Source: a virus (lineage: Duplodnaviria; Heunggongvirae; Uroviricota; Caudoviricetes). From it: DNA of 25,928 nt. Positions 7,912 through 25,670 of the stretch are shown here, piece by piece; the stretch's first letter is position 1; the number at the start of each line of letters is the position of its first letter. The notes beneath the pieces are model-generated. The model saw only the letters and a list, made by a program, of their open reading frames with translations, was not told where the DNA came from and did not search any database. Location: IMG/VR virus record IMGVR_UViG_2579778694_000005. One strand, 5' to 3'. Position numbers and translations under genes: made by a program.

Positions 7912-7923
7912 GTGCACCGCCTG

Positions 7924-7943
7924 ATAGGTAGATACTTACTTAT
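7924..7943. promoter_or_regulatory. 20-bp palindromic box, copy 1
   Basis: ATAGGTAGATACTTACTTAT, 17/20 to consensus ATAAGTAAGTACTTACTTAT. Lies between a candidate promoter and the ATG at 7911. Confidence 0.7.
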
Positions 7944-7955
7944 CATAATGAGCGA

Positions 7956-7984
7956 ATCATAGCGACTGGAGACAGCTTTTGGAA
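7956..7984 (-). promoter_or_regulatory. Candidate sigma70 promoter of the replication operon
   Basis: Minus strand TTCCAA (7984-7979), 17-bp spacer, TATGAT (7961-7956). Confidence 0.5.
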
Positions 7985-8051
7985 GTGGAAACGGAAGGGA
8001 ATGTGTCTGAGAAGTTGGCATAGAAAAAGACCTGCTTCCGTATAAATAATA

Positions 8052-8071
8052 ATAAGTAACTTAGTATTTAT
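8052..8071. promoter_or_regulatory. 20-bp palindromic box, degenerate copy 2
   Basis: ATAAGTAACTTAGTATTTAT, 15/20 to consensus with intact outer arms. The region is AT-rich, so this match is weaker. Confidence 0.45.
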
Positions 8072-8174
8072 ATACAGAAGCAGGTTCTGAACTCGAAGTC
8101 TCCACCAGATTCTGAGTGCTGTAATGAAACACAAAAAAGTGCATAATCCTTTCTAAACCTCAACAAAAGGCGAC

Positions 8175-8972
8175 ATGATGATATTGTACAAATACGTCCC
8201 AGAAGAAACTTTAAAACTGTTTTTTGATCATGACGCAACCAGCTTCAAATTTACTCCAGTTGGTCAGTTCAATGATCCTTTCGAAACCTACGGTGTATCG
8301 TTTGCCTCTGAAGATGAAGACTCGCTAGCGCATTTGACGTTTCGCTCAAAGATCAATTCAGACCTAGCCAGTCTATGCTTATCAAGATCACCTTTAGAAG
8401 TGCTAATGTGGTCTCACTATGCTCAACACCACAGAGGTTATGTTGTTGGCATTGATACCGAATTAGCAGGGTTTCACGATGAGAATCTTTGTTTAATCAC
8501 TGCGAATGAAGGGGGTATTGATTATCTCGATGAACGAGACAAATCCAGAGTCATCATCTCCGATAAAAACTTTAAAAACAAGGATATAGTTAAAAAGGTC
8601 TTATTTAGAAAAAGCCAACATTGGAAATATGAGAAAGAAGTTCGAATTGTTATTGAAAGTGACAAATTGATACCTATCGGTGATGATGAAGAAGATAGGT
8701 TTTATATATACAAGGCGCCAGGCACAAATATTATTAAAGAGATATTCATAGGAATCAACAATGAGGATTTTGAACTTACAGCACTCGAAAATGATAATTT
8801 AAGAAATGGCATTTTGGATAACAATATTAAAATCCAAAAATGTTGTTTCAAGAGGGGAACTTGGGACTTAGATAAAACGGATTATGATATGAGTCTGCTT
8901 ACTGATTGGCCTAGCGCTGATTTCGGTATTCTTGCCGGTGTGATATCAGCATTCGAAAAAAACGAAATTTGA
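8175..8972 (+). CDS. DUF2971-family protein, accessory insert
   Basis: LYKY N-terminus, FNDPFE, CLS....LMWSHYA..H.GYVVG and K...W.YE.EVR motifs typical of DUF2971. AT-rich and on the opposite strand to the backbone. Confidence 0.8.
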   Translation: MMILYKYVPEETLKLFFDHDATSFKFTPVGQFNDPFETYGVSFASEDEDSLAHLTFRSKINSDLASLCLSRSPLEVLMWSHYAQHHRGYVVGIDTELAGFHDENLCLITANEGGIDYLDERDKSRVIISDKNFKNKDIVKKVLFRKSQHWKYEKEVRIVIESDKLIPIGDDEEDRFYIYKAPGTNIIKEIFIGINNEDFELTALENDNLRNGILDNNIKIQKCCFKRGTWDLDKTDYDMSLLTDWPSADFGILAGVISAFEKNEI

Positions 8973-9009
8973 GATGAAGCGAACACAAGCGGTTTGTGTT
9001 CGCTTCATC
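8973..9009. terminator. Long hairpin between convergent DUF2971 and partition genes
   Basis: Perfect 16-bp stem GATGAAGCGAACACAA-GCGGT-TTGTGTTCGCTTCATC. Confidence 0.75.
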
Positions 9010-9013
9010 ATAA

Positions 9014-9373
9014 CTAGCCTTTCTTCATCAGCTCACGCTTGATTTCATCGGTGCGCATCGTGACGTCGGCAGCGGTGATCGCCTCGTTCAGTTTCACGAT
9101 GTCTTCGATTTCCTGCGGCGACTTCTCTGCCAGATGGAAAATGGCTGCACGAATCACGTCAGAACGGGTGAATTTCTCGAAACGAGGGATGAACTTCATC
9201 ATCTCCAGCAGATCGAAGTACTCGTCTTCCAGCGACATTGTGCGGCTCTTAATCTTCTCTTTCCCACGAGTCGGACGCCCCTGCGGTCTGACTGGCTGGC
9301 GCATTGGGGTGCTGCTTTTTACCGGTTCTTCCGGATCTTTGCGCTTTGCAAGGTCTCCCATTCTCATGGACAT
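9014..9373 (-). CDS. Small ribbon-helix-helix partition protein (type Ib, ParG-like centromere-binding)
   Basis: 119 aa, start overlaps the parA stop (TAATG). Low-complexity basic N-terminal tail (PQGRPTRG) then SRTMSLEDEYFDLLE...TRSDVIRAAI, a strand-helix-helix pattern. Confidence 0.7.
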   Translation of the reverse strand: MSMRMGDLAKRKDPEEPVKSSTPMRQPVRPQGRPTRGKEKIKSRTMSLEDEYFDLLEMMKFIPRFEKFTRSDVIRAAIFHLAEKSPQEIEDIVKLNEAITAADVTMRTDEIKRELMKKG

Positions 9374-10038
9374 TATTCTTCCTCCAGACTCATGATGTAA
9401 TCTACAAACTCTTCGAACTCGGCTTCTGCCTTCTTATCGCGTTCGGCGCCAGTCATTTCAAAGATAGAACGACCCGCCTCTTCCGCATCGTCATAAACGT
9501 TACGGTTGTACAGGTTAACCGGCGCAGCCTCGATGCCGAATGTCTCGACAATTTCTTTCGCCGCCAGAATACGTGACGCCTGGGAAGGCAGTGACGGACA
9601 CTGGTTCACTACCGCGCGGATCTTCACAGTCTCGTTCACGTTGCGAACGTTGTCGATAATCGGGTCGATATCACGCAGGGATTTCAAATCACGACGCTTA
9701 GGGCGCAGCGGGATAATGATGAAGTCTGCCAGCAGCATCGCTTGTCGCTGAATTTCGGAGTCAAAACCACCCGCATCAATGACGACGTAATCGTAGCGTC
9801 CCTTCAGCGATTTGATGTGTTTGACGATGTCGTCCTGAACGTATGCGAACGGGATTAGCTCAAGATCTTCGTTCTGGCGACGGTCTTCACACCAGCTCGT
9901 TGTGGTGCGCTGAATATCAATGTCGGTGACGTGAGTCTTCTTTTTCTTTTTAACTTTGAGGCATACCGCAATTTGCTGGGCAACGGTAGATTTGCCTGGG
10001 CCGCCTTTTGTGCCGCCAACCACAATGATCCTGGTCAT
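9373..10038 (-). CDS. parA: ParA-family partition ATPase (short, type Ib)
   Basis: 221 aa. Deviant Walker A KGGPGKST, DIDIQ, Walker B VVIDAGG, and ADFIIIP. Confidence 0.93.
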   Translation of the reverse strand: MTRIIVVGGTKGGPGKSTVAQQIAVCLKVKKKKKTHVTDIDIQRTTTSWCEDRRQNEDLELIPFAYVQDDIVKHIKSLKGRYDYVVIDAGGFDSEIQRQAMLLADFIIIPLRPKRRDLKSLRDIDPIIDNVRNVNETVKIRAVVNQCPSLPSQASRILAAKEIVETFGIEAAPVNLYNRNVYDDAEEAGRSIFEMTGAERDKKAEAEFEEFVDYIMSLEEE

Positions 10039-10179
10039 TGGTGAGTTCCCTTTGCGTGAATTATTGTCGTATGAAACAACTTGTTTTCTTATATGCGATA
10101 TAGCCTAAATGCCTACGGCTACGGTGTAAAGGTGAAATGATAGGCAGTACGGGTGTTGGCTCACAGGACAAACAATCAG

Positions 10180-10208
10180 TTGAAAGTTTGTTCGATTGGC
10201 TTTATAGT
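10180..10208 (+). promoter_or_regulatory. sigma70 promoter of the toxin-antitoxin operon
   Basis: TTGAAA (10180-10185), 17-bp spacer, TATAGT (10203-10208). Confidence 0.7.
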
Positions 10209-10210
10209 TC

Positions 10211-10233
10211 TTGTACGGAAAGATGCCGTACAA
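10211..10233. promoter_or_regulatory. Antitoxin operator
   Basis: TTGTACGG-N7-CCGTACAA directly after the -10 box. It has the GTAC inverted-repeat layout I recall for AtaR/KacA operators. Confidence 0.7.
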
Positions 10234-10265
10234 AGAGTGGCGTAATCCGTCTACAAAACTAAATG

Positions 10266-10350
10266 CGAAAAACTGAAAATCGAAAAACTGAAAATCGAAA
10301 AACTGAAAATCGAAAAACTGAAAACTGAAAACTGAAAACTGAAAAATCGA
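10266..10350 (+). repeat. Compound tandem repeat tract (15-bp and 7-bp units)
   Basis: CGAAAAACTGAAAAT x3 (10266-10310), CGAAAAACTG, AAAACTG x3 (10321-10341), AAAAATCGA. Confidence 0.95.
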
Positions 10351-10397
10351 CTATAGAGATGCCTCGCGAGTCAAGGCGTGGGGCTAGGAGTACAAGC

Positions 10398-10667
10398 ATG
10401 TCAGCACTGAAAAAACAGCGCATCGATCTCAGATTAACCGACGACGACAAGAGCATGATCGAAGAAGCTGCGGCAATGACCAACCAGACAATTACTCAGT
10501 TTATGGTTGCCAGTGCCTCTGAACGTGCTGCGGAAGTGATAGAGCAACATCGTCGCCTGATTCTTAGCGAAGAGTCATGGAATATAGTGATGGATGCCAT
10601 CAGTAACCCGCCTGCACCGAATGATAGGCTGAAACGAGCTGCCGAGCGTCTACAAAGCATGGAGTAA
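10398..10667 (+). CDS. ataR: DUF1778 RHH antitoxin (AtaR/KacA/TacA type)
   Basis: True start MSALKKQRIDLRLTDDDKSMIEEAAA at 10398 after an AGGAG RBS; 89 aa; closely resembles AtaR/KacA. Confidence 0.92.
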   Translation: MSALKKQRIDLRLTDDDKSMIEEAAAMTNQTITQFMVASASERAAEVIEQHRRLILSEESWNIVMDAISNPPAPNDRLKRAAERLQSME

Positions 10668-10670
10668 GAC

Positions 10671-11195
10671 GTGGCCAACCTGACCATTGAGATGTTTTCA
10701 GAAGAGGCTGTATATGATTTCTCATGCTTCGACTGCGGAGAAACGTCTCTCAATGATTTTCTTAACAATCGCCTCGCCCAGCAACACAGCGGGCGTATAT
10801 TACGCGGATATCTGCTTCTGACGAGAGATCCGATACCGAAAGTGATGGGGTTTTACACGTTGTCCGGGAGCTGCTTTGCAAGAAACACGCTTCCTTCCAA
10901 CACTCAACAGCGTAAAGTCCCCTATTCCGACGCCCCAAGCGTTACGCTCGGTCGTCTGGCAATAGACAAAAGTATCCAGCGACAAGGGTATGGGGAAACG
11001 CTGGTGGCACATGCGATGAAAGTGGTATACCGGGCTTCCCTGGCCGTTGGGATCTACGCTTTGTTTGTTGACGCCAAAAATGAGAATGCGATGCGGTTTT
11101 ATAAGCAGTTAGGCTTTACCCCTCTTACGGGTGATAACGCCAATTCGCTGTTCTATCCCACAAAAGGCATTGAGAAGTTGTTTGGTGGAAAATAA
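10671..11195 (+). CDS. ataT: GNAT tRNA-acetylating toxin (AtaT/KacT type)
   Basis: FDCGE..LN.FL, GFYTLSG, SVTLGRLAID, QRQGYG acetyl-CoA loop and A.RFY..LGF; starts 3 nt after the antitoxin stop. Confidence 0.92.
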   Translation: MANLTIEMFSEEAVYDFSCFDCGETSLNDFLNNRLAQQHSGRILRGYLLLTRDPIPKVMGFYTLSGSCFARNTLPSNTQQRKVPYSDAPSVTLGRLAIDKSIQRQGYGETLVAHAMKVVYRASLAVGIYALFVDAKNENAMRFYKQLGFTPLTGDNANSLFYPTKGIEKLFGGK

Positions 11196-11224
11196 AGAAG
11201 CCCCTCGATTGAGGGGCTGTTTTA
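11194..11224. terminator. Bidirectional terminator between the toxin and the lysis cassette
   Basis: AGCCCCTC-GATT-GAGGGGCT (11199-11218) with a T-run on the right and an A-rich run on the left. Confidence 0.75.
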
Positions 11225-11446
11225 ATTCAAGGCTTGTCTGTCCTGCCAGTTGCACAATCGCTCTCCCATCGTGTTATGGAAGAGGATCTCGCGTTCCGTC
11301 TCTTCGGTCATAAAGTCGTCGTTACTGACATAAATAGGGTTTGCTGCATCGCAGAACAGCACGCCGGAAGTCTGTGTCTTAATCACGCAGCCACTTATCA
11401 TGCAGCTCGCGATGAACAGCAGAAGCATCTTTCCGCCGCACTTCAT
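11222..11446 (-). CDS. Outer-membrane lipoprotein, o-spanin (Rz1-like)
   Basis: MKCGGKMLLLFIASCMISG-C signal peptide and lipobox; overlaps the 3' end of the i-spanin; last gene of the lysis cassette. Start could be 11458, 11446 or 11428. Confidence 0.7.
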   Translation of the reverse strand: MKCGGKMLLLFIASCMISGCVIKTQTSGVLFCDAANPIYVSNDDFMTEETEREILFHNTMGERLCNWQDRQALN

Positions 11447-11630
11447 TAAGTGTCTCATTTTTGACGTCCACTGTGCTTTGAAGCCTTTTCCTGTCCTCCT
11501 GTCTGGCCTTCTCTTCGATTGCTTGCCGGGCCGCACGACCTCCCATCGTATAAGCACCGACAAGCACGAAAAGAACGGCAGCCAGAGTCATCAGAGCAAA
11601 CTTCAGCTTTGAAAATAGGCTGCCGGTCAT
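11379..11630 (-). CDS. Inner-membrane i-spanin (Rz-like)
   Basis: 83 aa from ATG 11630; N-terminal TM (FALMTLAAVLFVLVGAYTM) then a charged helical tail; follows the endolysin. Confidence 0.7.
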   Translation of the reverse strand: MTGSLFSKLKFALMTLAAVLFVLVGAYTMGGRAARQAIEEKARQEDRKRLQSTVDVKNETLNEVRRKDASAVHRELHDKWLRD

Positions 11631-11631
11631 A

Positions 11632-12324
11632 TCAGACCATCCCGTTCTGGTGTTTTCGCACCTGTGACCAGGCGATAAAGCCAGCCACCACAATGGTCGC
11701 GATACCGAAGATGATCCGAACCGTATCACCACTGGTGATGTGTCCCTGCGCCTTGTCCATTGCCGCAGAGACCTGTGGCATGACGTCGGCCAGCTGTGCC
11801 AGACCAATTCCCGCCGTAACGGTCGCACCGGCAGTTTCTTTGGTTACAGGAACAGCCTTCACGGTTTTCACCGGCTTAACGACACCAGCGCGACGCAGAC
11901 CTTCCTCAATAACTTCTGCCGCATACCAGGTGTTCGGCGTTTTGAGCGGGCCACGGCCATTTTCATGACGGATAATCGCCTCCACCAGCGGACGCAGAGT
12001 GTCGTAGTCGTGCAGATCGATAATCATGTCCGGGGTCACGCCAACGGCTTTAGATACCTCGTTCACGTAAGCTACGGTGTTGTTTTCATGCGGAGGCGCC
12101 CAGCGTTCGATGACTTCGCGGATCGTATCGATGCTGGAGCCATCCTTCGCGCGGCGCTTGTCGTGGTAGGTAATGAGCGTTACTGCCAGCGCCCGAATCC
12201 CCCATACGGGATCTTTGAACGTGCAGAAACGCGGTTCGGCAGGGTTGTCAATTAACCCCTGCCACGGCGAACCTTTGTCGAGGTTGCCAGGGTTGTTATT
12301 ACGAATGCCTCTCGGAGTTTTCAT
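11632..12324 (-). CDS. Putative endolysin (NNNPGN lysozyme-like family) with a hydrophobic C-terminus
   Basis: Start MKTPRGIRNNNPGNL at 12324. RFCTF..PVWGIRAL, TI..VI.RWAP..ENNT..Y and AII.HENG motifs. Sits between the holin-like and spanin genes. Confidence 0.7.
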   Translation of the reverse strand: MKTPRGIRNNNPGNLDKGSPWQGLIDNPAEPRFCTFKDPVWGIRALAVTLITYHDKRRAKDGSSIDTIREVIERWAPPHENNTVAYVNEVSKAVGVTPDMIIDLHDYDTLRPLVEAIIRHENGRGPLKTPNTWYAAEVIEEGLRRAGVVKPVKTVKAVPVTKETAGATVTAGIGLAQLADVMPQVSAAMDKAQGHITSGDTVRIIFGIATIVVAGFIAWSQVRKHQNGMV

Positions 12325-12337
12325 CCTTGATCTCCTG

Positions 12338-12661
12338 TTATTGCAGTCCATTCTTCACGCCATAAGCGGCCAGACCCAGCAGCAGCGCGGTAATCAGGAA
12401 CGACGTTATCTTTGAGATAATGCCGCCAAAGAACCCGCTGGAGATGGCGTCTAGCCGATTAAGTAGTTTGTCCAGGTTGGAGTGCTGAATGCTGTGTTGC
12501 GAAGGCGTCATATCGCCAAAGTAGGTTTTGAGCTGGTCGTTGACCTCCTGGCCAATTTCCTCACGTAACTCCTTACCTAATTTGCCGACAACTTCACGCG
12601 CAACGATAGCGGCAATGCGCTCTACCTGCTCTGGCGTTACGCCTGCCATCTCGTTCGACAT
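12338..12661 (-). CDS. Small membrane protein, putative holin
   Basis: 107 aa from ATG 12661 (GGAGG RBS). C-terminal hydrophobic segment FFGGIISKITSFLITALLLGLAAYGV; first gene of the lysis cassette. Confidence 0.55.
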   Translation of the reverse strand: MSNEMAGVTPEQVERIAAIVAREVVGKLGKELREEIGQEVNDQLKTYFGDMTPSQHSIQHSNLDKLLNRLDAISSGFFGGIISKITSFLITALLLGLAAYGVKNGLQ

Positions 12662-12697
12662 TATTTCCTCCATGAATCGTCAAATCGGGATGGCTGT

Positions 12698-12706
12698 TTT
12701 ATACCA
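12698..12706 (-). promoter_or_regulatory. Extended -10 element upstream of the lysis cassette
   Basis: Minus strand TG-G-TATAAA; no good -35, whose position is overlapped by palindromic box copy 3. Confidence 0.45.
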
Positions 12707-12723
12707 CAAATCACCCTTACATG

Positions 12724-12743
12724 GTAGGTAAGTACTTACACAC
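12724..12743. promoter_or_regulatory. 20-bp palindromic box, copy 3
   Basis: GTAGGTAAGTACTTACACAC, 15/20 to consensus, with a perfect 12-bp core GTAAGTACTTAC (12728-12739) overlapping the gp38 stop. Confidence 0.65.
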
Positions 12744-13524
12744 GAGCACCATAAATTGCACCGACTTTAGTCCATGTAGGCGCGTTCCCCGTGACAGCCT
12801 TACCCGCCGCGCCCCCTCCGTACATTGTCCCCAATCGTCCAGTAGCAGCCGCACCAGCAGCCCCCACATTACCTCCACTGCCGCATGTGTATTGAACAGC
12901 GGTAGAGCCGATCAAATATTGAGCACCAATCCCGGGAGCGGTTAGAGTGCCAGAAGTTGCCGCACGCGAAGTTGAAGCTGGCGGCCTTGTAGTGTTTGCA
13001 ACACCAAACGGGCGACCGCCACCACCCATACCACCATCGGCTGAGTTACCGCCGCCACCACCACCGCCACCGGCAATAGCGCCGTTATTGGTTATTCTTA
13101 AACGAGTCCCAATCCCGTTGTTAATAGCAGTGCCACCGGCAGCACCGCCACCTTTAACGCCACCATTACCCCCACGACCATAGACAGTTACACCTGCGTT
13201 GATTACCAGGCTGATATAAGAGTTGGTAAGCGAACTCGGGAAATCTAAACATGGCACGCCGCTGCTGGACGACACCAGATCCCCTGTAATGGTAACAACG
13301 ACTGGCGTCGCCCCCTGGGATTTTAAATAGTTGATCAGTGTGTCTTTGTTGTAGTTATGATTCGCACCGATGCTGTAATGAATTTCCTTAGAACGACCTG
13401 CTAACTGAGACATATTCCCAGCAGCAGACAATTGCACCGCCGTTCGAGCTGCACTCATCCATCTCTGGCCTGTCACACTGACAGCCGAAGACCCAATCCA
13501 ACCGGGAACACCGACAATTGGCAC
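12736..13524 (-). CDS. T-even gp38-type tail fibre tip adhesin (T2/S16 class)
   Basis: True start GTG 13524 (AAGGAG RBS), 262 aa. PIVGVPGWIGSSAV..TGQRWM N-terminus, GRSKEI, glycine-rich motifs GRGGNGG, IAGGGGGGGG, GGGGRPFG and GGGAAG, and the W..VG.I.G C-terminus. Confidence 0.9.
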   Translation of the reverse strand: MPIVGVPGWIGSSAVSVTGQRWMSAARTAVQLSAAGNMSQLAGRSKEIHYSIGANHNYNKDTLINYLKSQGATPVVVTITGDLVSSSSGVPCLDFPSSLTNSYISLVINAGVTVYGRGGNGGVKGGGAAGGTAINNGIGTRLRITNNGAIAGGGGGGGGNSADGGMGGGGRPFGVANTTRPPASTSRAATSGTLTAPGIGAQYLIGSTAVQYTCGSGGNVGAAGAAATGRLGTMYGGGAAGKAVTGNAPTWTKVGAIYGARV

Positions 13525-13590
13525 ATCTAATCTCCTTTTTGATGTGAATATCCTGAATTGGTGAGGGTGGCCCCTCACCATTCACCTTGA

Positions 13591-16500
13591 TTACATTTTT
13601 GCCTTCAGTTCGCGCACTTCCTCGCGCAGCTCTTTGACAGCCTCGACCAACATGCCGATAACGCCGTTGTAGTTAAGACGCAGACGAGGCTCTCCTGACT
13701 GATCGTTATGGTCAACCGTTACCAGTTCAGGCTGAACATTCTGGACGTCCTGAGCGATGAGGCCGCCAGACTGCTCATACCGGTCACAGACCTGAATCTC
13801 GTACAGAACACCTTCGATCCGATCCAGCTTGTCGAGCGCTCGTTCAATCTTGCGAATATTGCGTTTGCTACGACGGTCAGAGCGGATATAAACGTCATTA
13901 AAGCTGCCATTACCGCCACAAACCCAAGTACCATCATTCTGGAGGTATGCGTTCGCATCCGTGCCGTTTGCGGTACGTGAGTTGTTGATCATGTAAAAAC
14001 CAAACTGACTGTTTCCCAAGCCACCCAAGAAGAATTTGCGATCCGCGTGGTCTTGTCTCAACAACGCTTGTGCAGAGCTTGTACTTACAGCGTTCCTCCC
14101 GAAGATGACGTTCTGGTTACGCATATCTATCCACGCGCCAGAGCCGCTGTTGATGGAAAAACGGTTGGCGTAAACCCACGCACTTGACGTGATGTCACCC
14201 GTTACACTCAACGGCTTAAGGCTTTGCAGCGTGCTATTAACGAACCTAAAAACATGGGCGCTATTGGCGTAAACATCCAGAATGCCATCTCCGTTCTGTT
14301 TAAAGCCGGTGTCATTGTCACCCAGAACAATGGAATTACCGCCAAGACCATTGACCACACCCAGCCCAAGACCACCGTTAACAACAGCACCATTGCCCAT
14401 TGTTACTCTGCCATTAGTGAGATCTACATAAAATGGACGAAGCGAACCTATATCACCATTTTCTCCCTGGTCTTTTGCTGTCGGGATAAGGTAAAAATTA
14501 TTTTCGGAACGGCGAAAAATCATCCCGTATGCCGCATCGTAAATGCGTAACCCATCCGTAGAGCGGATCTTAAGCTGTCCGGACATCGTACCGCCGCTGT
14601 TTTTCATAAATAGCGCATCAATCCAGCCTGCAAATCCCGACTTATTAATGTATAAATTTCCATCATTTGCCAGAATGCCTCCACCTTGCGTCTTGAGGGG
14701 CTGACTCACATTTTGCAGCGTCAGCACACCAGTCATTGTTCCGCCAGAAATCGGTAACGCACCGACATCAGCCGCAGTGGGTTTGAGAGCAGTGTTGTAA
14801 TCTCTGCGCCAGGCAGGGGCATACGCGCTACCGTGATTAATATAGGTGAACTGAGCACAGGCAATCCCACCACCGGTAGTCGTTGTAGGCGTAGTAACTC
14901 GGATGGTCATTGCGCCTTCGGTACCTAAAACCTCGATAACCGCACCAGCAAGGCAGATATTGCCGACACCTGTATCAGTGATAATTTTATTGTCGGCATA
15001 TGACCAGGAACCCTTCATCATCCAGTACGGCACTTCGAAAGCACCACGCGCCTTCAGCCATGCGATAAATTCAGCGGTAGTCCAATTACCAGCCCCTGTG
15101 CTGTACGACGCGCTAAATGCTTGCGCGGCCCCAACGTCTTTCGCTGTGGGTTTGTGTGCTGTGGTGTAAACCTGTGCCCAACCAGACCAGTTTGCGTCAC
15201 CGGCATCACGTCGAGATCGCACATATACCGGGGCATGAGCACCGCTTGTTCCACTCCAACCAACTAAAAGTTCACCCTCACCAGACGCATAAGCACCTTT
15301 CAAGTGAATAACGTTGCCGTAAGCCGTTGGATAGCTATTGTTATAGGCTTCATACATCTGAATGCCAGGCATGGCCCCTTGAGTGTTCGAAGCCAGCGCA
15401 TTAACTCGCCCGCGGGAAACCAACGTCGGGATAGTAATGTTGGCAGAGCCATCGAACATTACGCTGTTGATTGTCCGCGGTGTTTGCAGTTTGGTTGCAG
15501 TAGCGGCATTACCAGTGGTGTTCTGATCACCCTGAATATTCACACCTGGCAGGTTGATATCAGTCGAACCGTCAAATCTCACCCCACCGATATAACGAGC
15601 GGTTTGAAGCACGGTAGCGGTACTTGCGTTACCCACCAGCGAACCGGTAATGGAGCCATCCTGATCAGAAATGACGCGATGGTAGACAGTCCCCTCTACA
15701 GCGTCTTCAGGCAGCGTATCCACAACCTCCAGTACTTCCAGAGTTTCGACCACAGCACCGGCAGATTGCAGGTTGACGACCAGCTTCTGAGAGCCAGCGC
15801 CAGCTTTGATGTAAATGTCGTAGTTATCATCAGCCGTGTTCACGGTAGCTACAGACAGCACAGCCGAATCCATAGTGCGATAAGCGACCGCATTCACCGA
15901 TTTCGGATCGCCTGCAGCAGTTCGCAGCACGATATCGGCCATTGCAGCAAGCGCTGGCTGCCCGGCTTCGTACCCTGCCCCGCCGATCACTTCGATGTAT
16001 ACGGTGCTGGTCGACTGTGGCATACGTGCCGTGGACACTTTCACCCACTTCGGCGCGTCGGTAGCCATGTCCATTTCAGCCGAAGTCCCTTTCCATTTCA
16101 CACTGGCAACACTGGCCTGGGCGTTCTGGGCGTACTCATAAGCCTTCGTTTCTGATTCTTTGGCATTCAGTTCAGAAGTTTTCGCCCCGGCAGCCGCATC
16201 GGTCGCCTCAGTTGCTTTCGTGGATGCCAGAGCAGCAGAATCAGAGGCTTCTTTGGCTTTAGCTTCAGCCACTGCCATCGCTTCGGTCGCAGTCGTTGCG
16301 GAAGCAGCAGCCTCACCTGCGGATTTGGCAGCAGCTGTTGCAGATCCTTCAGCGGCGGTCTCAGCAGACTTCGCGTTGGTTTCAGAGGTTTTGGCGGCTG
16401 CGGCAGATGCCTCAGAAGCTGTCGCCTGTTCACTGGCAACGTTGGCCTTCTCTGTTGCAGTTGTGGCCGAATCGGCAGCCGCAGTAGCTGATTTGCTCGC

Positions 16501-17772
16501 AGCATCAGCACTGCCAGCTGCGGCAGCGGCACTTTCCCCTGCGTGGGCTTCTGAGTTCTGGGCAGCCGCTTTTGATGCTTCGGCAGCCGTTGCGCTCTCC
16601 GATGCAGCTGTCTCGGACGCCTTTGCATTGGTCTCCGAAGTTTTTGCCTTCTCTTCGCTGGACGCAGCCGCGTTTTGACTCGCTAAAGCGGCGTCAGCAG
16701 ACTCACCTGCAGCGGTGGCGCTTTCGGAAGCGGCGTTCGCGCTGGATGCGGCAGCTGACTCGCTGGCAGCAGCAGCCTTCTGTGATGCGTCGGCGTTGGT
16801 TTCTGACGTTTTGGCAGCCGCAGCACTTGCCGCCGACTCACCGGCGCTCGAAGCAGCATGGGTTTCTGATTCCTTAGCCGCATTTTTTGAGGCCAGCGCA
16901 TCAGCTGCACTGCCAGCGGCGGCCTGCTCTGAGGCAGAGGCATTGGTTTCAGAGGTTTTGGCAGCAGCAGCAGAGTCAGACGAGGCAGACGCCGAAGCAG
17001 AGGCTTCGGACGCGCTGGTCGCAGCCTGAGTTTCAGATGCTTTCGCCGCATCTTTGGATGCCGCGGCACTCGTGGCTGATTCTCCCGCTTCAGTCGCTTT
17101 GGTAGACGCTGTCGCGGCAGACGCAGCAGCATCTACCTTGAAGCTCTCAGCATTGGTTTCAGACGTTTTTGCGGCGGAAGCGCTTGCACCGGCAGCGTTT
17201 TCTGATGCAGCAGCTGCGGCAGCACTCTGGCTTGCTTCGGTGGCTTTGGTAGACGCTGTATTGGCGCTTTCCGCAGCGGCCGCGGCACTGGCAGCAGCTT
17301 CCCTGGCCTTGTCGCCAGCGGCATTGATAACGTCGGCGTTATCCGTATACCATTTCTGGTTTGCGTTATGCTCATTGACGATCTGCGTCAGCGACTTCAC
17401 GGTCACTTCCGTACCGTCTTCACGCTCAAGCGTTACCTCATCAACTGCCGTCAACCAGCTGCGCATCGTCTTCGAGTCGGCTGACATTCGGGTCATGAGC
17501 GCGGTAAAGCGTGCGCTGAACTGCGTTAAGTCGCCTTCATAGGTTGTGATGATGCGGCACGGAACGTCCGTCTGGGTCTCGCCCGTGTACGGCTCCGCGA
17601 GAATCAGGCTTGTGTCGCTGATTACGCGCTTAATTTCGTACAATTTGTTGTCAGGGCCGATGACGATCATGCCCGGCAGAACGCCGTTGGCGGTCACATT
17701 CCAGTACGTGCCAGTGCCAGAAAGTGCGTCACTTCCCTGTGTAAATGTGATAGTACCTTCCCTGTACCACAT
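13591..17772 (-). CDS. Long (side) tail fibre, mosaic, with a C-terminal intramolecular chaperone (peptidase S74)
   Basis: True start MWYREGTITFT at 17772 (AAGGAG RBS), 1393 aa. Ala/Ser-rich coiled coil, Mu/P2/P1-type fibre modules, gp37-like GDNDTG and LRPF motifs, FNDVYIR-SDRRSK autocleavage motif and GLIAQDVQ. Confidence 0.92.
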   Translation of the reverse strand: MWYREGTITFTQGSDALSGTGTYWNVTANGVLPGMIVIGPDNKLYEIKRVISDTSLILAEPYTGETQTDVPCRIITTYEGDLTQFSARFTALMTRMSADSKTMRSWLTAVDEVTLEREDGTEVTVKSLTQIVNEHNANQKWYTDNADVINAAGDKAREAAASAAAAAESANTASTKATEASQSAAAAAASENAAGASASAAKTSETNAESFKVDAAASAATASTKATEAGESATSAAASKDAAKASETQAATSASEASASASASSDSAAAAKTSETNASASEQAAAGSAADALASKNAAKESETHAASSAGESAASAAAAKTSETNADASQKAAAASESAAASSANAASESATAAGESADAALASQNAAASSEEKAKTSETNAKASETAASESATAAEASKAAAQNSEAHAGESAAAAAGSADAASKSATAAADSATTATEKANVASEQATASEASAAAAKTSETNAKSAETAAEGSATAAAKSAGEAAASATTATEAMAVAEAKAKEASDSAALASTKATEATDAAAGAKTSELNAKESETKAYEYAQNAQASVASVKWKGTSAEMDMATDAPKWVKVSTARMPQSTSTVYIEVIGGAGYEAGQPALAAMADIVLRTAAGDPKSVNAVAYRTMDSAVLSVATVNTADDNYDIYIKAGAGSQKLVVNLQSAGAVVETLEVLEVVDTLPEDAVEGTVYHRVISDQDGSITGSLVGNASTATVLQTARYIGGVRFDGSTDINLPGVNIQGDQNTTGNAATATKLQTPRTINSVMFDGSANITIPTLVSRGRVNALASNTQGAMPGIQMYEAYNNSYPTAYGNVIHLKGAYASGEGELLVGWSGTSGAHAPVYVRSRRDAGDANWSGWAQVYTTAHKPTAKDVGAAQAFSASYSTGAGNWTTAEFIAWLKARGAFEVPYWMMKGSWSYADNKIITDTGVGNICLAGAVIEVLGTEGAMTIRVTTPTTTTGGGIACAQFTYINHGSAYAPAWRRDYNTALKPTAADVGALPISGGTMTGVLTLQNVSQPLKTQGGGILANDGNLYINKSGFAGWIDALFMKNSGGTMSGQLKIRSTDGLRIYDAAYGMIFRRSENNFYLIPTAKDQGENGDIGSLRPFYVDLTNGRVTMGNGAVVNGGLGLGVVNGLGGNSIVLGDNDTGFKQNGDGILDVYANSAHVFRFVNSTLQSLKPLSVTGDITSSAWVYANRFSINSGSGAWIDMRNQNVIFGRNAVSTSSAQALLRQDHADRKFFLGGLGNSQFGFYMINNSRTANGTDANAYLQNDGTWVCGGNGSFNDVYIRSDRRSKRNIRKIERALDKLDRIEGVLYEIQVCDRYEQSGGLIAQDVQNVQPELVTVDHNDQSGEPRLRLNYNGVIGMLVEAVKELREEVRELKAKM
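16140..17310 (-). repeat. Ala/Ser-rich coding repeats (AKTSETNA-type) in the fibre
   Basis: Many SETNA/SETHA/SETQA units with heptad-multiple spacing, as in lambda Stf-like fibres. Boundaries approximate. Confidence 0.85.
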
Positions 17773-17808
17773 ATTCTCTCCTTGAAAAGACGGGCATCCA
17801 TGCCCGCC

Positions 17809-17828
17809 ATAAGTAAGTACATACTTAT
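17809..17828. promoter_or_regulatory. 20-bp palindromic box, copy 4
   Basis: ATAAGTAAGTACATACTTAT, 19/20 to consensus, 36 bp upstream of the fibre ATG. Confidence 0.75.
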
Positions 17829-17852
17829 TTTTACCGATGTAAAGATGGATGT

Positions 17853-18470
17853 CTACCGTCGAGCAGAACCATCCTCCCATCCGACCTGATAATTTTTGAT
17901 TAGCTCAGGGTCGCTCATCTCCAGAATGTCTTTTTTCATCACCCTCTGGTGTTCGTGAATGCTGAACTTGCGGTCGAATAGCGTCTGCGTCATTCGCATC
18001 TCTAGCTCCTTCAGTTGCTCCAGCGTTACCGGAACATCGTTATTGTCCGCATCTGTCCAGAAGAAATTGTCCGGAAGACCGCCTGCCGCAGCTTTTAGCG
18101 AGATATCCAGCCGCTCTTTGGAAATGTCATTCGCGTCCCAGCGGTGGCCGTTCCATTCGAAATAGACGGTGAAACTTTCCTGACGAATACGCCAGTCGTT
18201 AATTTCTGCCAGCTTCTCGACTTTCAACCGTTCAATGTACTCGTCCTGATCAGGGTACGGTGCGATACCGCCACTGGCTTCAGACCCCAGCGCCTCAAGT
18301 ATCTTCTTTGCCAAAGGTGACGTGTCAGTCTCTGCCAATGTGTATGGCAAAAACAGAGGCGTTACACCATCCTCCATAACAAGCCCATCAAACTGAATCT
18401 CACAGGAGATCCCGCCACTAAGATTGCGCACTGCATTCCTTACAGCAGAGATGACGGGGGTTTCTTCCAT
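17853..18470 (-). CDS. Tail fibre assembly-type protein with a DUF4376-like C-terminal half
   Basis: LK..KLAEIN.WR, FEWNGHRWDA, FFWTDADNNDVPVT.EQL motifs. Start 18470 (or 18485). Confidence 0.75.
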   Translation of the reverse strand: MEETPVISAVRNAVRNLSGGISCEIQFDGLVMEDGVTPLFLPYTLAETDTSPLAKKILEALGSEASGGIAPYPDQDEYIERLKVEKLAEINDWRIRQESFTVYFEWNGHRWDANDISKERLDISLKAAAGGLPDNFFWTDADNNDVPVTLEQLKELEMRMTQTLFDRKFSIHEHQRVMKKDILEMSDPELIKNYQVGWEDGSARR

Positions 18471-18487
18471 AATATCCTTCTCCATTT

Positions 18488-21400: not shown

Positions 21401-23119
21401 GGAATTGAGCGCTTTGGAGAAGGTTACTTTGGTAATGTCTTCCCCGGTCTCAAGAATATCGCGCTCAACGATTTCGCCTTCCTGATTCAAGATCCGGATG
21501 TAGCTACCAGCCTTATTCAGCGTAACCGGTGCGTCGAGAGTGATGCTGTTCTTTGTGAACGCCACAATGCGGCCAGAGTTGCGTTTACCAGCACGGTATT
21601 TGTTCTGAATCAGCACCGTTTCGCCCGGCATCAGGAAGGAAGCATCCAGCCCTGCCGTAAAGCTGATAACGTCGGACTCCATGCGTGCGGTATACAGCAG
21701 CCACAGACCGACACGATGCGCCTGGCCACGGCTGGTACAGCCGAACGCAACCACTTCGGTTTTGCGCTCGCCATAACGACGCATCGCCTCCTGGTCTTCG
21801 ACGTACTCGATGTTCTGCTTGTAGCCGTCTTCCTTGTTGTTGTAGGTCACAAGAGCAACTGACGGACGGTCTTTACGCGCAGATCCCTTGTAGCTGAACA
21901 TGCCGTCTTTGACGTTCGCGTTGGTGAACATCATGACCGGATCTGACGGGCTATCCTGCATGACGTTAACCATGCCGCCAGCCCAGAAGACCATACCGCG
22001 GAAGGCGCCAGCGATATCCTGAATCAGTCGGTACGCATCCTGACGGCAGGTGATCTGGGTGTTGATAGCGAAGCGCTTCTCTTTACCCCCGAAGCCATTG
22101 TCAATTTCTTCATCGCAGTAGCGGCCAATCTGGTAAATCTGCCCGAGGTCAATCATGGACTCAGAAACGTACTGCCCCAGGCCATAACGAGCGTTGGTAA
22201 GCAGGTCGAAGAGAATCCAGGCAGGGTTGGAAGATGACAACAGCTTGAATGTGCCATCCCATACGCCGATATAGGTGTTTGTGTGTTCGTCGTAGTTGGA
22301 CGGGACGCGGATCTTCAGACCACGCACCAGATACGAACGAGACGGCATCGAGCTGCCGAACTGCTCTGAGTTGACCTTGAGGCCGACCAGCGCGGAGTTC
22401 GGGTAGTTCATCGGCGTATCGACGATCTCACCGACAGAGTCCACCCACGTATCGTTAAAGATGTACTGAGTGTTGCTGTCATCGGTCAGACGAAGCACGC
22501 GAACCTTGTAGGCACGGCCTGGCTTGGGCAGTTTTAGTTCATAGCTGCGGTAGTAGACGCCCGTCTTTTTTGCCGTCAGCGTAATTTCGGAAGTGCTCTC
22601 CCCTTCTGCAATGGCGTCCTTGAAGGCATTATCGCCATTGGCAATCTGGAATTTGTACTTCACGGTCGTACCGTTGGTATCACCGGTCTTTTTGTCAATG
22701 CTACGCAGAGACGGGAACTTCAGAATGACGCGGACACGGTCTGCCTCATCGTTATCGATGGCAATCGTAACGTCGTGCATTCTTTTCAGCTGGATGTTGA
22801 CTGACTTCGGCGTTTCAACGAAATCGAACCCGGACATCGGCGTCTGGTCTTGTGAGCCATCGCGGAAGTCCCAGGTGATACCGCTAAAGTTTGGAGATCC
22901 GTCTTCGTTCAGGATTGGCAGGTCATCAACGAAGATCGACTTTGCGCCATCCACCAGCCCGCCAATGACACCCTCCCCGAGCAGGTCGAGGATGGACGCC
23001 ATAGCACGCGAGTTTACGGTATCGTCGGCTTCAACCGGCGTGCGGCTGGAGCCACTGCTTTTCTTACCGCCAGCACCTGCAATCAGGAGAGGCAGTCTCT
23101 TCTTCTTGAACTGTTCCAT
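18488..23119 (-). CDS. Central tail fibre / tip attachment protein J
   Basis: GAGGKK...P.EA.D N-terminus, DLLGEG.I.GL, NPAWILFDLLTN.RYGLG, GCTSRGQAHR.G.W, FN3-like segments, coiled coil, and DUF1983-type YVAGI.LG...F...ADRF region. Confidence 0.95.
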   Translation of the reverse strand: MEQFKKKRLPLLIAGAGGKKSSGSSRTPVEADDTVNSRAMASILDLLGEGVIGGLVDGAKSIFVDDLPILNEDGSPNFSGITWDFRDGSQDQTPMSGFDFVETPKSVNIQLKRMHDVTIAIDNDEADRVRVILKFPSLRSIDKKTGDTNGTTVKYKFQIANGDNAFKDAIAEGESTSEITLTAKKTGVYYRSYELKLPKPGRAYKVRVLRLTDDSNTQYIFNDTWVDSVGEIVDTPMNYPNSALVGLKVNSEQFGSSMPSRSYLVRGLKIRVPSNYDEHTNTYIGVWDGTFKLLSSSNPAWILFDLLTNARYGLGQYVSESMIDLGQIYQIGRYCDEEIDNGFGGKEKRFAINTQITCRQDAYRLIQDIAGAFRGMVFWAGGMVNVMQDSPSDPVMMFTNANVKDGMFSYKGSARKDRPSVALVTYNNKEDGYKQNIEYVEDQEAMRRYGERKTEVVAFGCTSRGQAHRVGLWLLYTARMESDVISFTAGLDASFLMPGETVLIQNKYRAGKRNSGRIVAFTKNSITLDAPVTLNKAGSYIRILNQEGEIVERDILETGEDITKVTFSKALNSGDMPVMNGVWTITEPDLEPMRVRVINVAQGEAQGTFDVTVVQNNASKYEAIDNGATLIPENNTVLDPTYSKPTNLQVTEGTYISSPGNLSIKLVATWEGKSAEYWISWRRSDENNVSNWQSARVTEEQFEILNIAENGQYDIQLYAVSFSGKKTDIISTVYQVKGTMTPPGSPTSLTAVGDYRNVILNWVNPDSIDLDHINVYASQTNDLETAKLIAEAASTTFTHAGLGDSETWYYWVRAVNKRGMLSPPNSNLGTEAMTRDVLSFLTGKITSSELGQELLEEIDSKASQDAVDAINKQMEESLKELDQSVADLDSKLEDTSGRLEQAQNDLKNEVSGTLDKVNDALQQVEDSNAALVELQETVSEQGKAVAGAVEAAHAALDNASALIAEEREARVEGDKANAKQIEAMKSSVDDSVAAVEEMKKTVAEVERASAEVSTNIEALAKTNIDLALRQDEDQHKQMVNNAKIATTQKTFADDMSAMASKVEEIRAEIGEDIRASILEETTARVEADKAIATHISKLEAQLNDDISAAIVAEQEARATADEALSRQITTLQAKVEGDISAALTEEQIARATADEALSKQITQLKAQTGEDIKAAVAEETQARTDADGALASQISSLKAQTAEDIKAAVDTETKARTDADSALAGQITNLQAQTGKDINAAITSEATARANADGALGKRIDTVKAEVDGNSALIQEQAKAIADTDKKVSAAWTLKMETSTSGGQKYVAGIALGIDSTGLSQFLVQADRFGLVNSVNGKITTPFVIENSVAYMNGAYIKDGTITNAKIGNVIQSNDYAAGSKGWIIPKNGSPEFNNGTFRGSITANSGSLNNVTIAQNCQILGKLHANQIDGDIVKAYMVNGSSIYLAPQTFARVIYVSGGYYYYAPSENTNTYSWSRITEYTVNGVKQQMYGKRDNSENQSGMFGYYNLPAGQSATVDVYTWHEQRKYNHRVNEPYLVLVFKA
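19325..19890 (-). repeat. Six tandem 33-aa (99-bp) repeats in J
   Basis: Units of the form E..AR..AD.AL..QI..L.AQ...DI.AA recur every 33 residues. Boundaries approximate. Confidence 0.85.
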
Positions 23120-23140
23120 GTTCAAAAATTTCCCTTCTTA

Positions 23141-23728
23141 CTAAAGCTGGTCGATGGTGATCGAAGAACTCACAACCTGTGAGCCGACCAGAATTTCCTC
23201 GCCATAAATGAGCTGAACCGGGTTGCCCTGGTTAGTGGTGTTTTGTGGCCCGTCGAAATAAAACGAGTTCGAGTTATCTGCCTGCCTTACGCTGTCATTG
23301 GTCGCCTGGGGCGAAATTAGCTGCGAAATACCGCCCATCATTAGCGACAAGCCGAGCGGGGCCAGCGCTGGGAACCAGAATGAGGCAACCATGACGAGTG
23401 CCCCTACGACTGTCTGGAACCAACCAAAAGCCTTACCGCCACTACCGCGAGGAACTGGCGTGATGCGGATCTTCGCGATGTTGTCGGACTGCCCCATCAT
23501 TTGAAACTCGCTCTCATCAACCGACCACTTATGCCCCTGCTTATTGGTGATCTGGATGTGGTAACTGTCGTAGGTCTTCATGTTGCGTTTCATCCAGGCT
23601 TTTAAGCCCGGACGGTTGGCTTCGACCAAATCCAACGCCTGTTTGGTGTTGCGCACTTTTAAATGCCAGTGGCGGCCGAAATGTCTGGCCATCGGGCCAC
23701 CAAGTTGCACATGAACTAACTCAGTCAC
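23141..23728 (-). CDS. Tail assembly protein I (lambda gpI-like)
   Basis: IRITPVPRGSGG, hydrophobic Gly-rich segment, F.GPQNTT.QG.PV.L.YG; GTGA overlap with K. Confidence 0.92.
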   Translation of the reverse strand: MTELVHVQLGGPMARHFGRHWHLKVRNTKQALDLVEANRPGLKAWMKRNMKTYDSYHIQITNKQGHKWSVDESEFQMMGQSDNIAKIRITPVPRGSGGKAFGWFQTVVGALVMVASFWFPALAPLGLSLMMGGISQLISPQATNDSVRQADNSNSFYFDGPQNTTNQGNPVQLIYGEEILVGSQVVSSSITIDQL

Positions 23729-24513
23729 GCTTCATCTCCCTTGAGTAAGTCTCTGTGACGCAGGTGGTGCGTCGTGTGTTTCTGGTACATGCCACCGTAA
23801 TAAGCGCGACAGCTCAGACGGTCGATCTGGTGGTGCAGGATCATTCCGTCTCCGATGTACACCGCGCAGTGGTCAGGCATCTTTCCGTACTGAATGAAGA
23901 AGACGTCACCACGCTGGGGTTCCGTCCCCGGCGCCAGACGAACAAGCCCTTCATTGCGGTAGTTCTGATCGAGAATGTCGGTATCACCCGTGTACCACGA
24001 TGGAATATGCAGGTGCGGGTTTGGATTCAACTCGACGTTGAACTCACGCTTCAGGTAGTCGCGGCACAGCATCCAGCAGTCGAAGACACCAAACACATAG
24101 GGCCGCCCCAGATAAGGCATCTCAAAGCCGTCTGGGGTGATCACATTCATCTCACTGAAGTGAAATGGCGCATCGCCCTCGACATTCTTCCTAACAGCCA
24201 GAATCAGCCACGGAACTTCCGTTGCCTCGCATCCGGCGCGGTCGGCGTCTGACGCTTCAGCTGATTCGTCAGTGTGGGAGTGCCAGATGGCAACCACGTC
24301 TCCCGCATCTTCCGCTGCGATAATGTCGTCAGCGTGCATAACAAACGTGTTTTCCGGGTTTTCAGACACGTTCCGGGCTTCCATGAAGCGATATTTCTCG
24401 CCAGTGGTACGCACCAGAAAGCCACACGCTTCGTTCGGGTAGCGTTTGATGGCTGTCAGATAGATTTCCTGCATAACGTCCGAACCAAGCTCCGGGAAAG
24501 CTCTATTACCCAT
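23725..24513 (-). CDS. Tail assembly protein K (JAB/MPN + NlpC/P60)
   Basis: PNEACG, WHSH...S.AD JAB motif; GRPYVFGVFDCW and HCAVY.GDG.ILHH NlpC/P60 motifs; start 24513 overlaps the L stop. Confidence 0.93.
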   Translation of the reverse strand: MGNRAFPELGSDVMQEIYLTAIKRYPNEACGFLVRTTGEKYRFMEARNVSENPENTFVMHADDIIAAEDAGDVVAIWHSHTDESAEASDADRAGCEATEVPWLILAVRKNVEGDAPFHFSEMNVITPDGFEMPYLGRPYVFGVFDCWMLCRDYLKREFNVELNPNPHLHIPSWYTGDTDILDQNYRNEGLVRLAPGTEPQRGDVFFIQYGKMPDHCAVYIGDGMILHHQIDRLSCRAYYGGMYQKHTTHHLRHRDLLKGDEA

Positions 24514-25204
24514 AACGCGTTGCTCCAATGAACCCGCCAAAGTGGATTACGCCATTGGCAAAGTAGTTACGGCGTGCGTTGCATGAGTCGTAGCGTTTCG
24601 TGCAGTAATCCGCGCCTGACATGGTGGTTTGCTGGTTGTTTTTGTCGAAATAGGGGCCGGTGTAGCCGCACTCTGGACCGCGGTATTTCCACGGGCAGGT
24701 GTTTTTGATGATCTGGCGGTACGGCAGCTGCACACCCATCAGATCGAACACACTCGACAGCTCAAACTCGACAACCTCATGGGTTTCGAGAGTCTTCTGT
24801 TCGATGAACCACATCTCATCCGGGAAGTGCTGGTTTGGATCTGCGGTTGGATTCCCGTCTTTGAAGTTGGCCGCGTCGAGAAAACGCGCCAGCGTCATCT
24901 TGCGGATGATGCGGCAGCCCACCAGATCGTCGTTTGCCTGAACTTCAGCGGAGACAGTTCCGGCAAAGTTGGAGACCTGGATTTTTGGACGCGGCAAAGT
25001 ACCCTGACCAGTCTTATCAAAGCCTGACGCCTTGATTGGCCACGGTTCGTAGGACACGCCTTGCCAAACGACTGGCTCCATCAGTTCGTTTGTACCGGCG
25101 TGGAAAAACAGCTTGCCCCCAGAGGTGGTGTTCGACATATCAAGTTCGAACAGCTCAATGAGCGCGGAGGGCGACAAGCTCTGAATATCAGCTTTAATAC
25201 CCAT
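24506..25204 (-). CDS. Minor tail protein L (lambda gpL-like)
   Basis: IELFELD, YEPWPI..SGF, C-terminal Cys cluster CPWKYRGPECGY.G...D.C.KR...C; start ATG 25204. Confidence 0.95.
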   Translation of the reverse strand: MGIKADIQSLSPSALIELFELDMSNTTSGGKLFFHAGTNELMEPVVWQGVSYEPWPIKASGFDKTGQGTLPRPKIQVSNFAGTVSAEVQANDDLVGCRIIRKMTLARFLDAANFKDGNPTADPNQHFPDEMWFIEQKTLETHEVVEFELSSVFDLMGVQLPYRQIIKNTCPWKYRGPECGYTGPYFDKNNQQTTMSGADYCTKRYDSCNARRNYFANGVIHFGGFIGATRYG

Positions 25205-25260
25205 CGTTTCTTCCTTGAAATAAAGAGGCGCCAACATCCTGTCAGCGCCTATAGATAATA

Positions 25261-25280
25261 GTAAATAAGTGCTTACTTAT
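25261..25280. promoter_or_regulatory. 20-bp palindromic box, copy 5
   Basis: GTAAATAAGTGCTTACTTAT, 17/20 to consensus, in the M-L intergenic gap. Confidence 0.7.
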
Positions 25281-25293
25281 CTAGTGGGTTAAA

Positions 25294-25629: not shown

Positions 25630-25670
25630 CTCACATCCTTGTGAGACTGCCCCTTCCGGGGCAGCCGTGG

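Follow-up and report, generated by a model that had tools for sequence, protein, structure and literature searches.

Phages are known to control their genes through dispersed operators. The plasmid prophage P1, of ~100 kb, is silenced by its repressor C1 through many operators scattered before separate lytic units, and the C1 gene is itself under operator control; these operators are asymmetric 17-bp sequences read by a large protein. In mycobacteriophage L5 and cluster A, gp71 has ~30 sites in short intergenic gaps, including gaps inside long operons, and these stoperators, asymmetric 13-bp sequences in a fixed orientation to transcription, could block elongation as well as initiation. The late promoters of P1 (Lpa) are built differently, with a -10 element and an inverted repeat that replaces the -35 element, the dyad centre lying ~20 bp upstream of the start, and need an activator. 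Cro/CI-type repressors and C-proteins bind palindromic operators as dimers and autoregulate. Here we describe a family of dispersed palindromes, possibly the operators of a lysogeny repressor, found in a stretch of 25,928 nucleotides (the window) from the IMG/VR virus record IMGVR_UViG_2579778694_000005 (Caudoviricetes), which sequence comparison assigns to an SSU5-like phage-plasmid of Enterobacter hormaechei.

The system proposed here resembles that of P1 C1 in its single repressor, its scattered operators and the operators at the repressor's own gene, but differs from it in the site, a perfect 20-bp dyad, and in the candidate protein, a small Cro/CI-type helix-turn-helix (HTH) protein apparently unrelated to C1. 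As in L5, many copies of one site occupy short intergenic gaps genome-wide; unlike the stoperators, these sites are symmetric, and many coincide with a -10-like hexamer. The dyad centre, which would lie near -19.5, recalls the P1 late promoters, which serve late genes only, whereas here all gene classes are preceded by sites and some sites seem to lie in complete sigma-70 promoters. Literature searches on the motif, on a pHCM2 repressor or operator and on an SSU5 promoter or inverted repeat returned no published description of the motif or its regulator, and no description of how SSU5-type phage-plasmids are silenced as plasmids or switch to lytic growth was found in the literature searched. 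For this widespread family, dispersed-operator control has most likely not been described previously. What appears to be new is a named candidate protein and its co-variation with the site across lineages, for a type of mechanism that is itself known.

A conserved family of palindromes at gene starts

By Megablast, window positions 7000-25928 were 100% identical to the E. hormaechei plasmid pEh22_1 (NZ_CP126775.1, 110,856 bp) and ~90% identical to Salmonella phage SSU5, and the backbone was matched by 822 plasmid records. We used pEh22_1 as the complete reference, together with the whole genome contig of the window (G000, 89,928 bases), which lacks ~30 kb present in the reference (78010-108705) and carries, relative to it, a Tn3-type insert within the primase gene. 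The gene map was transferred from the annotation of the reference. On the minus strand, the window contains the genes for the tape measure protein, M, L, K, I, J, a DUF4376 protein, the tail fibre and an adhesin, then the holin-endolysin-spanin cassette, parA, and a gene of 241 amino acids (aa) followed by that of a DnaB-like helicase; a toxin-antitoxin pair and a DUF2971 gene lie on the plus strand.

The original prediction, made from the window alone, had listed five copies of a 20-bp palindrome, at 7924, 8052, 12724, 17809 and 25261, and its coordinates and mismatch counts all proved correct. Four of the five belong to one family, with the consensus ATArGTAAGTACTTACyTAT (Table 1); the copy at 8052 does not, being the loop of a terminator-like inverted repeat. 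Five was also a large underestimate of the size of the family. A symmetric position weight matrix (PWM), built iteratively on the reference, found 19 sites of at least 18 bits in G000 and 28 such matches in the reference, against 0 in shuffles; 26 of the 28 are true members, and the other two were excluded as AT-rich loops of a different inverted repeat, whose arms measure 15 bp. With the untrained consensus, 16 words of the reference fell within four mismatches (0 in shuffles), and in the window three words had at most three mismatches (0 in 100 shuffles). Shuffles of the window contained a mean of 0.04 sites reaching at least 14 bits by the PWM, compared with scores of 21-29 bits for its four members.

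Annotated gaps make up 15% of the reference and hold 25 of its 26 true sites, a non-random placement. The sole strong copy in a coding sequence lies outside the window, inside a CobT-like gene (G000 73864, reference 16792), and is found in SSU5 and pJN2-26 as well. The claim that neither the transposon nor the genes contain copies thus holds within the window, where we found only two 11-bit matches at chance level (419 and 5555), and fails for this gene. As had been predicted, the four members of the window lie in gaps upstream of the 241-aa/DnaB operon and of the holin, tail-fibre and tail L genes. Copy 7924 ends 12 nt from the start of the 241-aa gene, at the head of the minus-strand operon for the DnaB helicase and the primase, and copy 12724, which overlaps the very end of the adhesin gene, lies 50-60 nt ahead of the holin start. 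Over the whole element, the genes preceded by sites belong to replication, recombination, nucleotide metabolism, head, tail and lysis, and include nrdA, thyA and dam. A dyad repeated far above chance at gene starts and promoters is what would be expected of an operator set of XRE type.

The same dyad was recovered at orthologous gene junctions in SSU5, in the Escherichia coli phage-plasmid Cyrano and in the Klebsiella plasmid pJN2-26; copy 7924, for instance, has orthologues in all three. In ungapped comparisons anchored on the dyad, its identity to the reference was 84% in Cyrano and 83% in pJN2-26, against 49-59% for the 20-nt flanks, which bore out the conservation in relatives that the original prediction called for. 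At the holin site the dyad is retained even though the upstream flank is unrelated (identities of 2/20 in SSU5, 1/20 in Cyrano and 9/20 in pJN2-26). The palindrome family is real, conserved and of regulon scale.

When the sites were oriented by their downstream gene, the information profile showed the dyad ATArGTAAGT/ACTTACyTAT, in which T6 and A15 do not vary and the outer positions, 1-3 and 18-20, equal the core in conservation. Outside the dyad, A occupies position 22 in 22 of 29 sites and T occupies position 23 in 19 of 29, and positions 18-23 commonly read TATCAT, TACCAT, TACTAT or TATGAT. The recurrent layout is thus one in which the outer TAT of the palindrome and the three following bases make up a -10-like hexamer. 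In the window, copy 7924 is followed on the plus strand by CAT (TATCAT), and copies 12724 and 25261 are followed on the minus strand by CAT (TACCAT) and TAT (TACTAT), respectively. A general -35 element is not present, and the six bases upstream of the dyad are A-rich. The claim that copy 12724 overlaps a -35 position could not be reproduced, no sigma-70-like promoter having been found there. Two sites of the reference, 4728 and 61615, lie exactly between TTGAAA and TATCAT or TATGAT at a spacing of 17 bp, and this TTGAAA is retained in all four enterobacterial genomes. From their sequence, both can be read as complete sigma-70 promoters that would need no activator, in which the dyad takes up the spacer together with part of the -10 element, a position that would be classical for a repressor operator.

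Table 1. Coordinates of the palindromes and of associated features (window positions, except where G000 is named).
Feature	Position	Strand	Remarks
Palindrome copy ATAGGTAGATACTTACTTAT	7924..7943	.	17/20, 26 bits
Palindrome copy, perfect 12-bp core GTAAGTACTTAC	12724..12743	.	15/20, 21 bits
Palindrome copy, best of window	17809..17828	.	19/20, 29 bits; between DUF4376 and tail-fibre genes
Palindrome copy	25261..25280	.	17/20, 25 bits; between tail genes M and L
128-aa Cro/CI-type (XRE) HTH protein	G000 75369-75755, outside window		adjoins tyrosine recombinase gene
88-aa protein, phrog_900, family unknown	G000 40922-41188 (L007:14994-15260)	-	just upstream of terS
241-aa gene, phrog_2500, function unknown	7186..7911	-	heads helicase/primase operon; downstream of copy 7924
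Holin gene	12338..12673	-	heads lysis cassette; downstream of copy 12724
Tail-fibre gene	13591..17772	-	downstream of copy 17809
Minor tail protein L gene	24506..25204	-	downstream of copy 25261
GC-rich hairpin + T run	17789..17808	-	directly downstream of copy 17809, upstream of tail-fibre ribosome-binding site
GC-rich hairpin + T-rich tail	25226..25250	-	10 nt downstream of copy 25261, upstream of gene L ribosome-binding site
Inverted repeat, 15-bp arms, not a family member	8030..8085	-	arms 8030-8044 / 8071-8085

A candidate repressor and its counterparts in distant lineages

We favour, with slightly better than even confidence, the reading that the palindromes are dispersed operators of a putative lysogeny repressor, the 128-aa Cro/CI-type protein of the element, and we infer that this protein binds them as a dimer and represses from them. 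A dimer would occupy each 20-bp site in front of most lytic units, from replication, recombination and nucleotide metabolism to head, tail and lysis, covering the promoter spacer and the -10 element or the first bases of the leader, and RNA polymerase would be excluded or blocked during replication of the element as a plasmid. Negative autoregulation would follow from two weaker copies that lie over the promoter of the repressor gene, and all units would be released together if the repressor were lost or inactivated. Since sites stand before every functional gene class, a global silencer fits better than a class-specific activator. An operator of a dimeric regulator covering replication and morphogenesis, as originally proposed, thus appears to be the best-supported reading, except that the regulon would extend to recombination, nucleotide metabolism, head and lysis genes.

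The annotation produced by the Prokaryotic Genome Annotation Pipeline names only two transcriptional regulators, an FljA-family protein and the 128-aa protein. The latter matches phrog_8 ("transcriptional regulator") at 1.8e-11. In its AlphaFold model, the N-terminal domain (predicted local distance difference test score, pLDDT, ~85) resembles the C-proteins C.AhdI and C.Esp1396I, 434 Cro, P22 c2 and lambda cI, with template modelling (TM) scores of 0.7-0.8 over the domain; the Foldseek E-values were weak, at 0.009 or worse, and the sequence identities were 15-22%. Both the phrog_8 match and the predicted fold thus indicate that the element encodes a Cro/CI-type HTH protein. The candidate would differ from these repressors in an additional C-terminal helical part of ~50 residues, for which there was no match, and in the absence of an S24 peptidase domain, so that its induction could not proceed by LexA-like self-cleavage.

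Sites are also found at the regulator's own promoter. The 128-aa gene has a sigma-70-like promoter, TTTACA-16-TAATAT, with two degenerate dyads. One overlaps the -35 element; the other, whose core GGTAAGTrCTTACC is shared by Cyrano and pJN2-26, overlaps the start region. The Cyrano homologue, CYRAN_45, is annotated as "putative repressor" and belongs to the small set of Cyrano genes that are expressed in the LF82 lysogen (PMC9928086). By tblastn, the 128-aa gene was present in ~820 enterobacterial plasmids, with genus counts almost equal to those of the phage backbone. SSU5, a virion isolate, was the sole phage record without it: the regulator, the recombinase and a small neighbour gene are all absent there, yet the sites persist.

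Two further observations were made around this gene. The segment of SSU5 (NC_018843.1) at 41776-42761, which corresponds to reference 17712-25224, contains only a tRNA-Asn gene, and the block absent from it comprises phoH, glutaredoxin, a toxin-antitoxin pair, the genes of the recombinase and of the 128-aa HTH regulator, and a 70-aa gene. At L006 518-570 (G000 ~75217-75269), ~50 nt upstream of the promoter of the HTH regulator, a short hairpin with a T run comes immediately after a sigma-70-like promoter (GTGACA-16-TAGTAT, overlapping a TATAAT), an arrangement that could represent a very small RNA or an attenuator.

Homologues of the 128-aa protein with 38% identity were detected by tblastn in ~110-kb Acinetobacter plasmids and in Rhizobium phages, two groups that have been related to the SSU5 supercommunity (Pfeifer et al., PMC7969092). 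In an Acinetobacter AB-group plasmid and in Rhizobium phage RHEph10, the homologue occupies a syntenic place beside CobT/CobS-like genes. A search for dyads in these two genomes, made without a prior model, yielded in each a family of its own: 32 sites of aTCAGTCAGTACTGACTGAt in the Acinetobacter plasmid and 39 sites of gTcArTCAATATTGAyTgAc in RHEph10, whose genome is 60% G+C, against ~0.1-0.2 in shuffles. The enterobacterial dyad is of the type TAAGTAAGT and that of Acinetobacter of the type TCAGTCAGT. The half-sites of the three lineages have T2, A4, T6, A8 and T10 in common and diverge at positions 3, 7 and 9. Alignment of the HTH proteins showed a recognition helix with constant N41, I46 and K47, while residues 38-40 and 42 vary between lineages.

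Expression data gave weak evidence. In the contigs of the rRNA-depleted run X5, depth was 50-205 over parA and the toxin-antitoxin pair versus 0-9 over the tail genes, a pattern compatible with silencing, although contigs are a poor measure of expression. Run X1 was flat at a depth of 100-140 and may hold DNA, and the raw-read RNA runs X20 and X23 of the species contained no reads of the element.

Other possible readers of the palindrome

Several observations weigh against the 128-aa repressor as the reader of these sites. The protein scores 18 bits against Pfam HTH_31, below the curated cut-off of 27, and its C-terminal half was modelled with low confidence. SSU5 keeps ~25 intact sites in the absence of the candidate gene, so that the gene must have been lost recently or else the sites have a different reader. 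The geometry of the sites is not uniform, copy 17809 having no -10-like hexamer and several copies abutting the ribosome-binding site (RBS) or the start codon. The direction-specific -10 signal is modest, the fifth hexamer base being A in 18/23 sites on the gene side and in 9/23 on the mirror side (p = 0.016) and TAnnnT occurring in 15/23 and 13/23, respectively, and most sites are without a -35 element, which leaves the firing of the promoters after derepression unexplained. The co-variation argument draws on three lineages only, and a second DNA-binding protein, an 88-aa winged helix, is likewise conserved in them.

Because the -35 element is missing and SSU5 has retained all its sites without the HTH gene, the main rival is a promoter-specificity element, through which a regulator conserved in every member, SSU5 included, would bring RNA polymerase to promoters with a -10 but without a -35 element, in the manner of Lpa at the late promoters of P1; we regard it as unlikely, though far from negligible. 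The palindrome ends in a -10-like TAYnAT hexamer, and its centre is close to the layout of the P1 late promoters. The binder would be the 88-aa winged helix encoded upstream of terS, or an unrecognised factor, and the 128-aa protein would have another role or only compete for the sites. The 88-aa protein is confidently modelled as a MarR/PadR-like winged helix (pLDDT 87.6, TM 0.72-0.77), its position is typical of late activators, and it is conserved in SSU5. The Acinetobacter plasmid has a homologue at the corresponding position (hhalign, 98.5%), and RHEph10 may have one as well (44%). Its recognition helix is, however, almost unchanged in Acinetobacter although the palindrome there differs at 4/20 positions, which argues against this protein as the reader of the dyad, and the genes reported to be expressed in the Cyrano lysogen do not include its homologue, which therefore cannot explain silencing. 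More generally, an activator has to be reconciled with sites preceding early, middle and late genes alike and with the two apparently complete sigma-70 promoters, which would require none, and it leaves the degenerate sites at the promoter of the 128-aa gene without a reason, unless the factor is Cro-like. A phage sigma factor like gp045 of RHEph10 was rejected, no homologue being present in the SSU5-like reference. The FljA-family regulator (PF03614, 4.5e-97) was set aside as reader of the main palindrome, since neither the Acinetobacter plasmid nor RHEph10, both of which carry the dyad family, encodes it.

The remaining explanations involve a host protein, the transcript or the partition machinery. 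It is very unlikely that the sites are, or double as, binding sites of the host nucleoid-occlusion factor SlmA, which would tie the DNA of the element to cell-division control. The SlmA site is GTGAGTACTCAC, in which position 3 may be any purine (Kd, the dissociation constant, is ~60 nM versus ~50 nM upon a change of G to A) and position 6 any pyrimidine, and the core GTAAGTACTTAC fits these preferences (PMC3020112). With ~52 peaks per E. coli chromosome in chromatin immunoprecipitation, even a few sites on 110 kb would be a high density; but the 12-bp dyad GTRAGYRCTYAC is matched on both halves in only 5 of the 26 reference sites (3 sites in SSU5, 1 in Cyrano and 6 in pJN2-26), and SlmA was set aside as the reader on account of this minority. 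The conserved site is moreover 20 bp long, positions 1-3 and 18-20 falling outside the 12-bp SlmA site, and the variants of Acinetobacter and Rhizobium break the SlmA rule at positions 3 and 5; to our knowledge, Rhizobium has no SlmA. Chromosomal SlmA sites also avoid promoter regions, whereas the palindromes sit at gene starts. A convergence of the enterobacterial operators on the SlmA-binding sequence, giving them two readers, the repressor for silencing and SlmA for at least the best-fitting copies, is quite unlikely; if it were true, the plasmid or the hundreds of genomes of the replicating phage would trigger nucleoid occlusion and delay division, and relatives in hosts without SlmA would keep the ancestral dyad variant that SlmA does not bind. 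We attach very little probability to the palindrome acting as an RNA hairpin of 5' leaders or intercistronic regions, where it would direct processing, stabilise the transcript or serve as a translational operator. Sites do occur in transcribed intergenic gaps, often just upstream of an RBS, and in the tail region a second, GC-rich hairpin follows them; yet in the transcribed orientation departures of the G-U type (14) are fewer than those of the A-C type (25), the opposite of selection on an RNA stem, and for copies 12724 and 7924 the folding was no more stable than that of shuffles (z of 0.6 and 0.0). Sites lie also in divergent promoter regions and over the -35 element of the regulator's promoter. 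What is conserved is the sequence and not the pairing, and the strand-specific pair counts and the folding against shuffles led us to reject the hairpin. Dispersed palindromes are read by ParB-family proteins in other systems, such as KorB on RK2 and Noc, and the element encodes two tandem ParB_N proteins in an ABC-ATPase operon, conserved in SSU5, RHEph10 and the Acinetobacter plasmid, which might bind the sites as a global silencer or use them for partition or condensation. We hold this to be highly improbable and set these proteins aside, since both have only the ParB N-terminal domain, with no HTH or other DNA-binding domain recognised by Pfam; no link was found between ParB_N variation and the motif variants.

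Neighbouring features and significance for SSU5-type phage-plasmids

Two of the palindromes in the tail region are accompanied by GC-rich hairpins (Table 1). That at 17789-17808 is kept in SSU5 with an interrupted T run, and in Cyrano its stem is kept with altered bases and without the T run. The sequence at 8052-8071 that had been taken for a second copy of the palindrome (15/20, 14.7 bits) lies in the 26-nt AT-rich loop of the 8030-8085 repeat. On the minus strand, this repeat has a folding energy of -24.2 kcal/mol (z -6.2), and a T run comes after it. Repeats of this type are a family of their own with ~3 copies per genome, others being located at G000 40862 and at reference 65181 and 93307. 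In the window, the repeat sits between the DUF2971 gene and the replication operon, which this terminator-like structure may insulate.

A second dispersed palindrome, AAACAAnTTGTTT, occurs at window positions 7146-7156 and 10075-10085 and at G000 40768, 49631, 51078, 53108 and 74804. Its copies lie 12-40 nt upstream of gene starts, which in the window are those of the DnaB-like helicase and parA. In the reference, 24 gaps contain the main palindrome, 14 contain AAACAAnTTGTTT, of which there are 14 copies, and none contains both. There are 11-13 copies of AAACAAnTTGTTT in the four enterobacterial genomes and 0-1 in the Acinetobacter plasmid and RHEph10, a distribution that matches that of the FljA-family regulator (PF03614), so that the FljA-like protein may read AAACAAnTTGTTT.

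Two differences between related elements were noted in passing. In the intergenic region between parA and the toxin-antitoxin pair (window ~10040-10390), the window has 8 bases more than the reference, to which it is otherwise identical, and gene coordinates beyond this region are offset by 8 between the two. The contigs of RNA-seq run X5 break at window 8364-8366 with loose ends on both sides; in the related plasmid of that strain, the DUF2971 gene has probably been disrupted by an insertion or rearrangement.

Phage-plasmids of the SSU5/pHCM2/pKpn/pMT1 type rank with the most common large plasmids found in Klebsiella, E. coli, Enterobacter, Salmonella and Yersinia, and they also bear resistance and defence cargo. 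The operator family provides a sequence signature for annotating the transcription units of these elements. The variant dyads of the Acinetobacter and Rhizobium relatives suggest an old, co-evolving pair of repressor and operator that could be used for studying how specificity changes. With one operator family and a named candidate repressor, the question of how SSU5-type elements are silenced as plasmids and switch to lytic growth becomes experimentally tractable.

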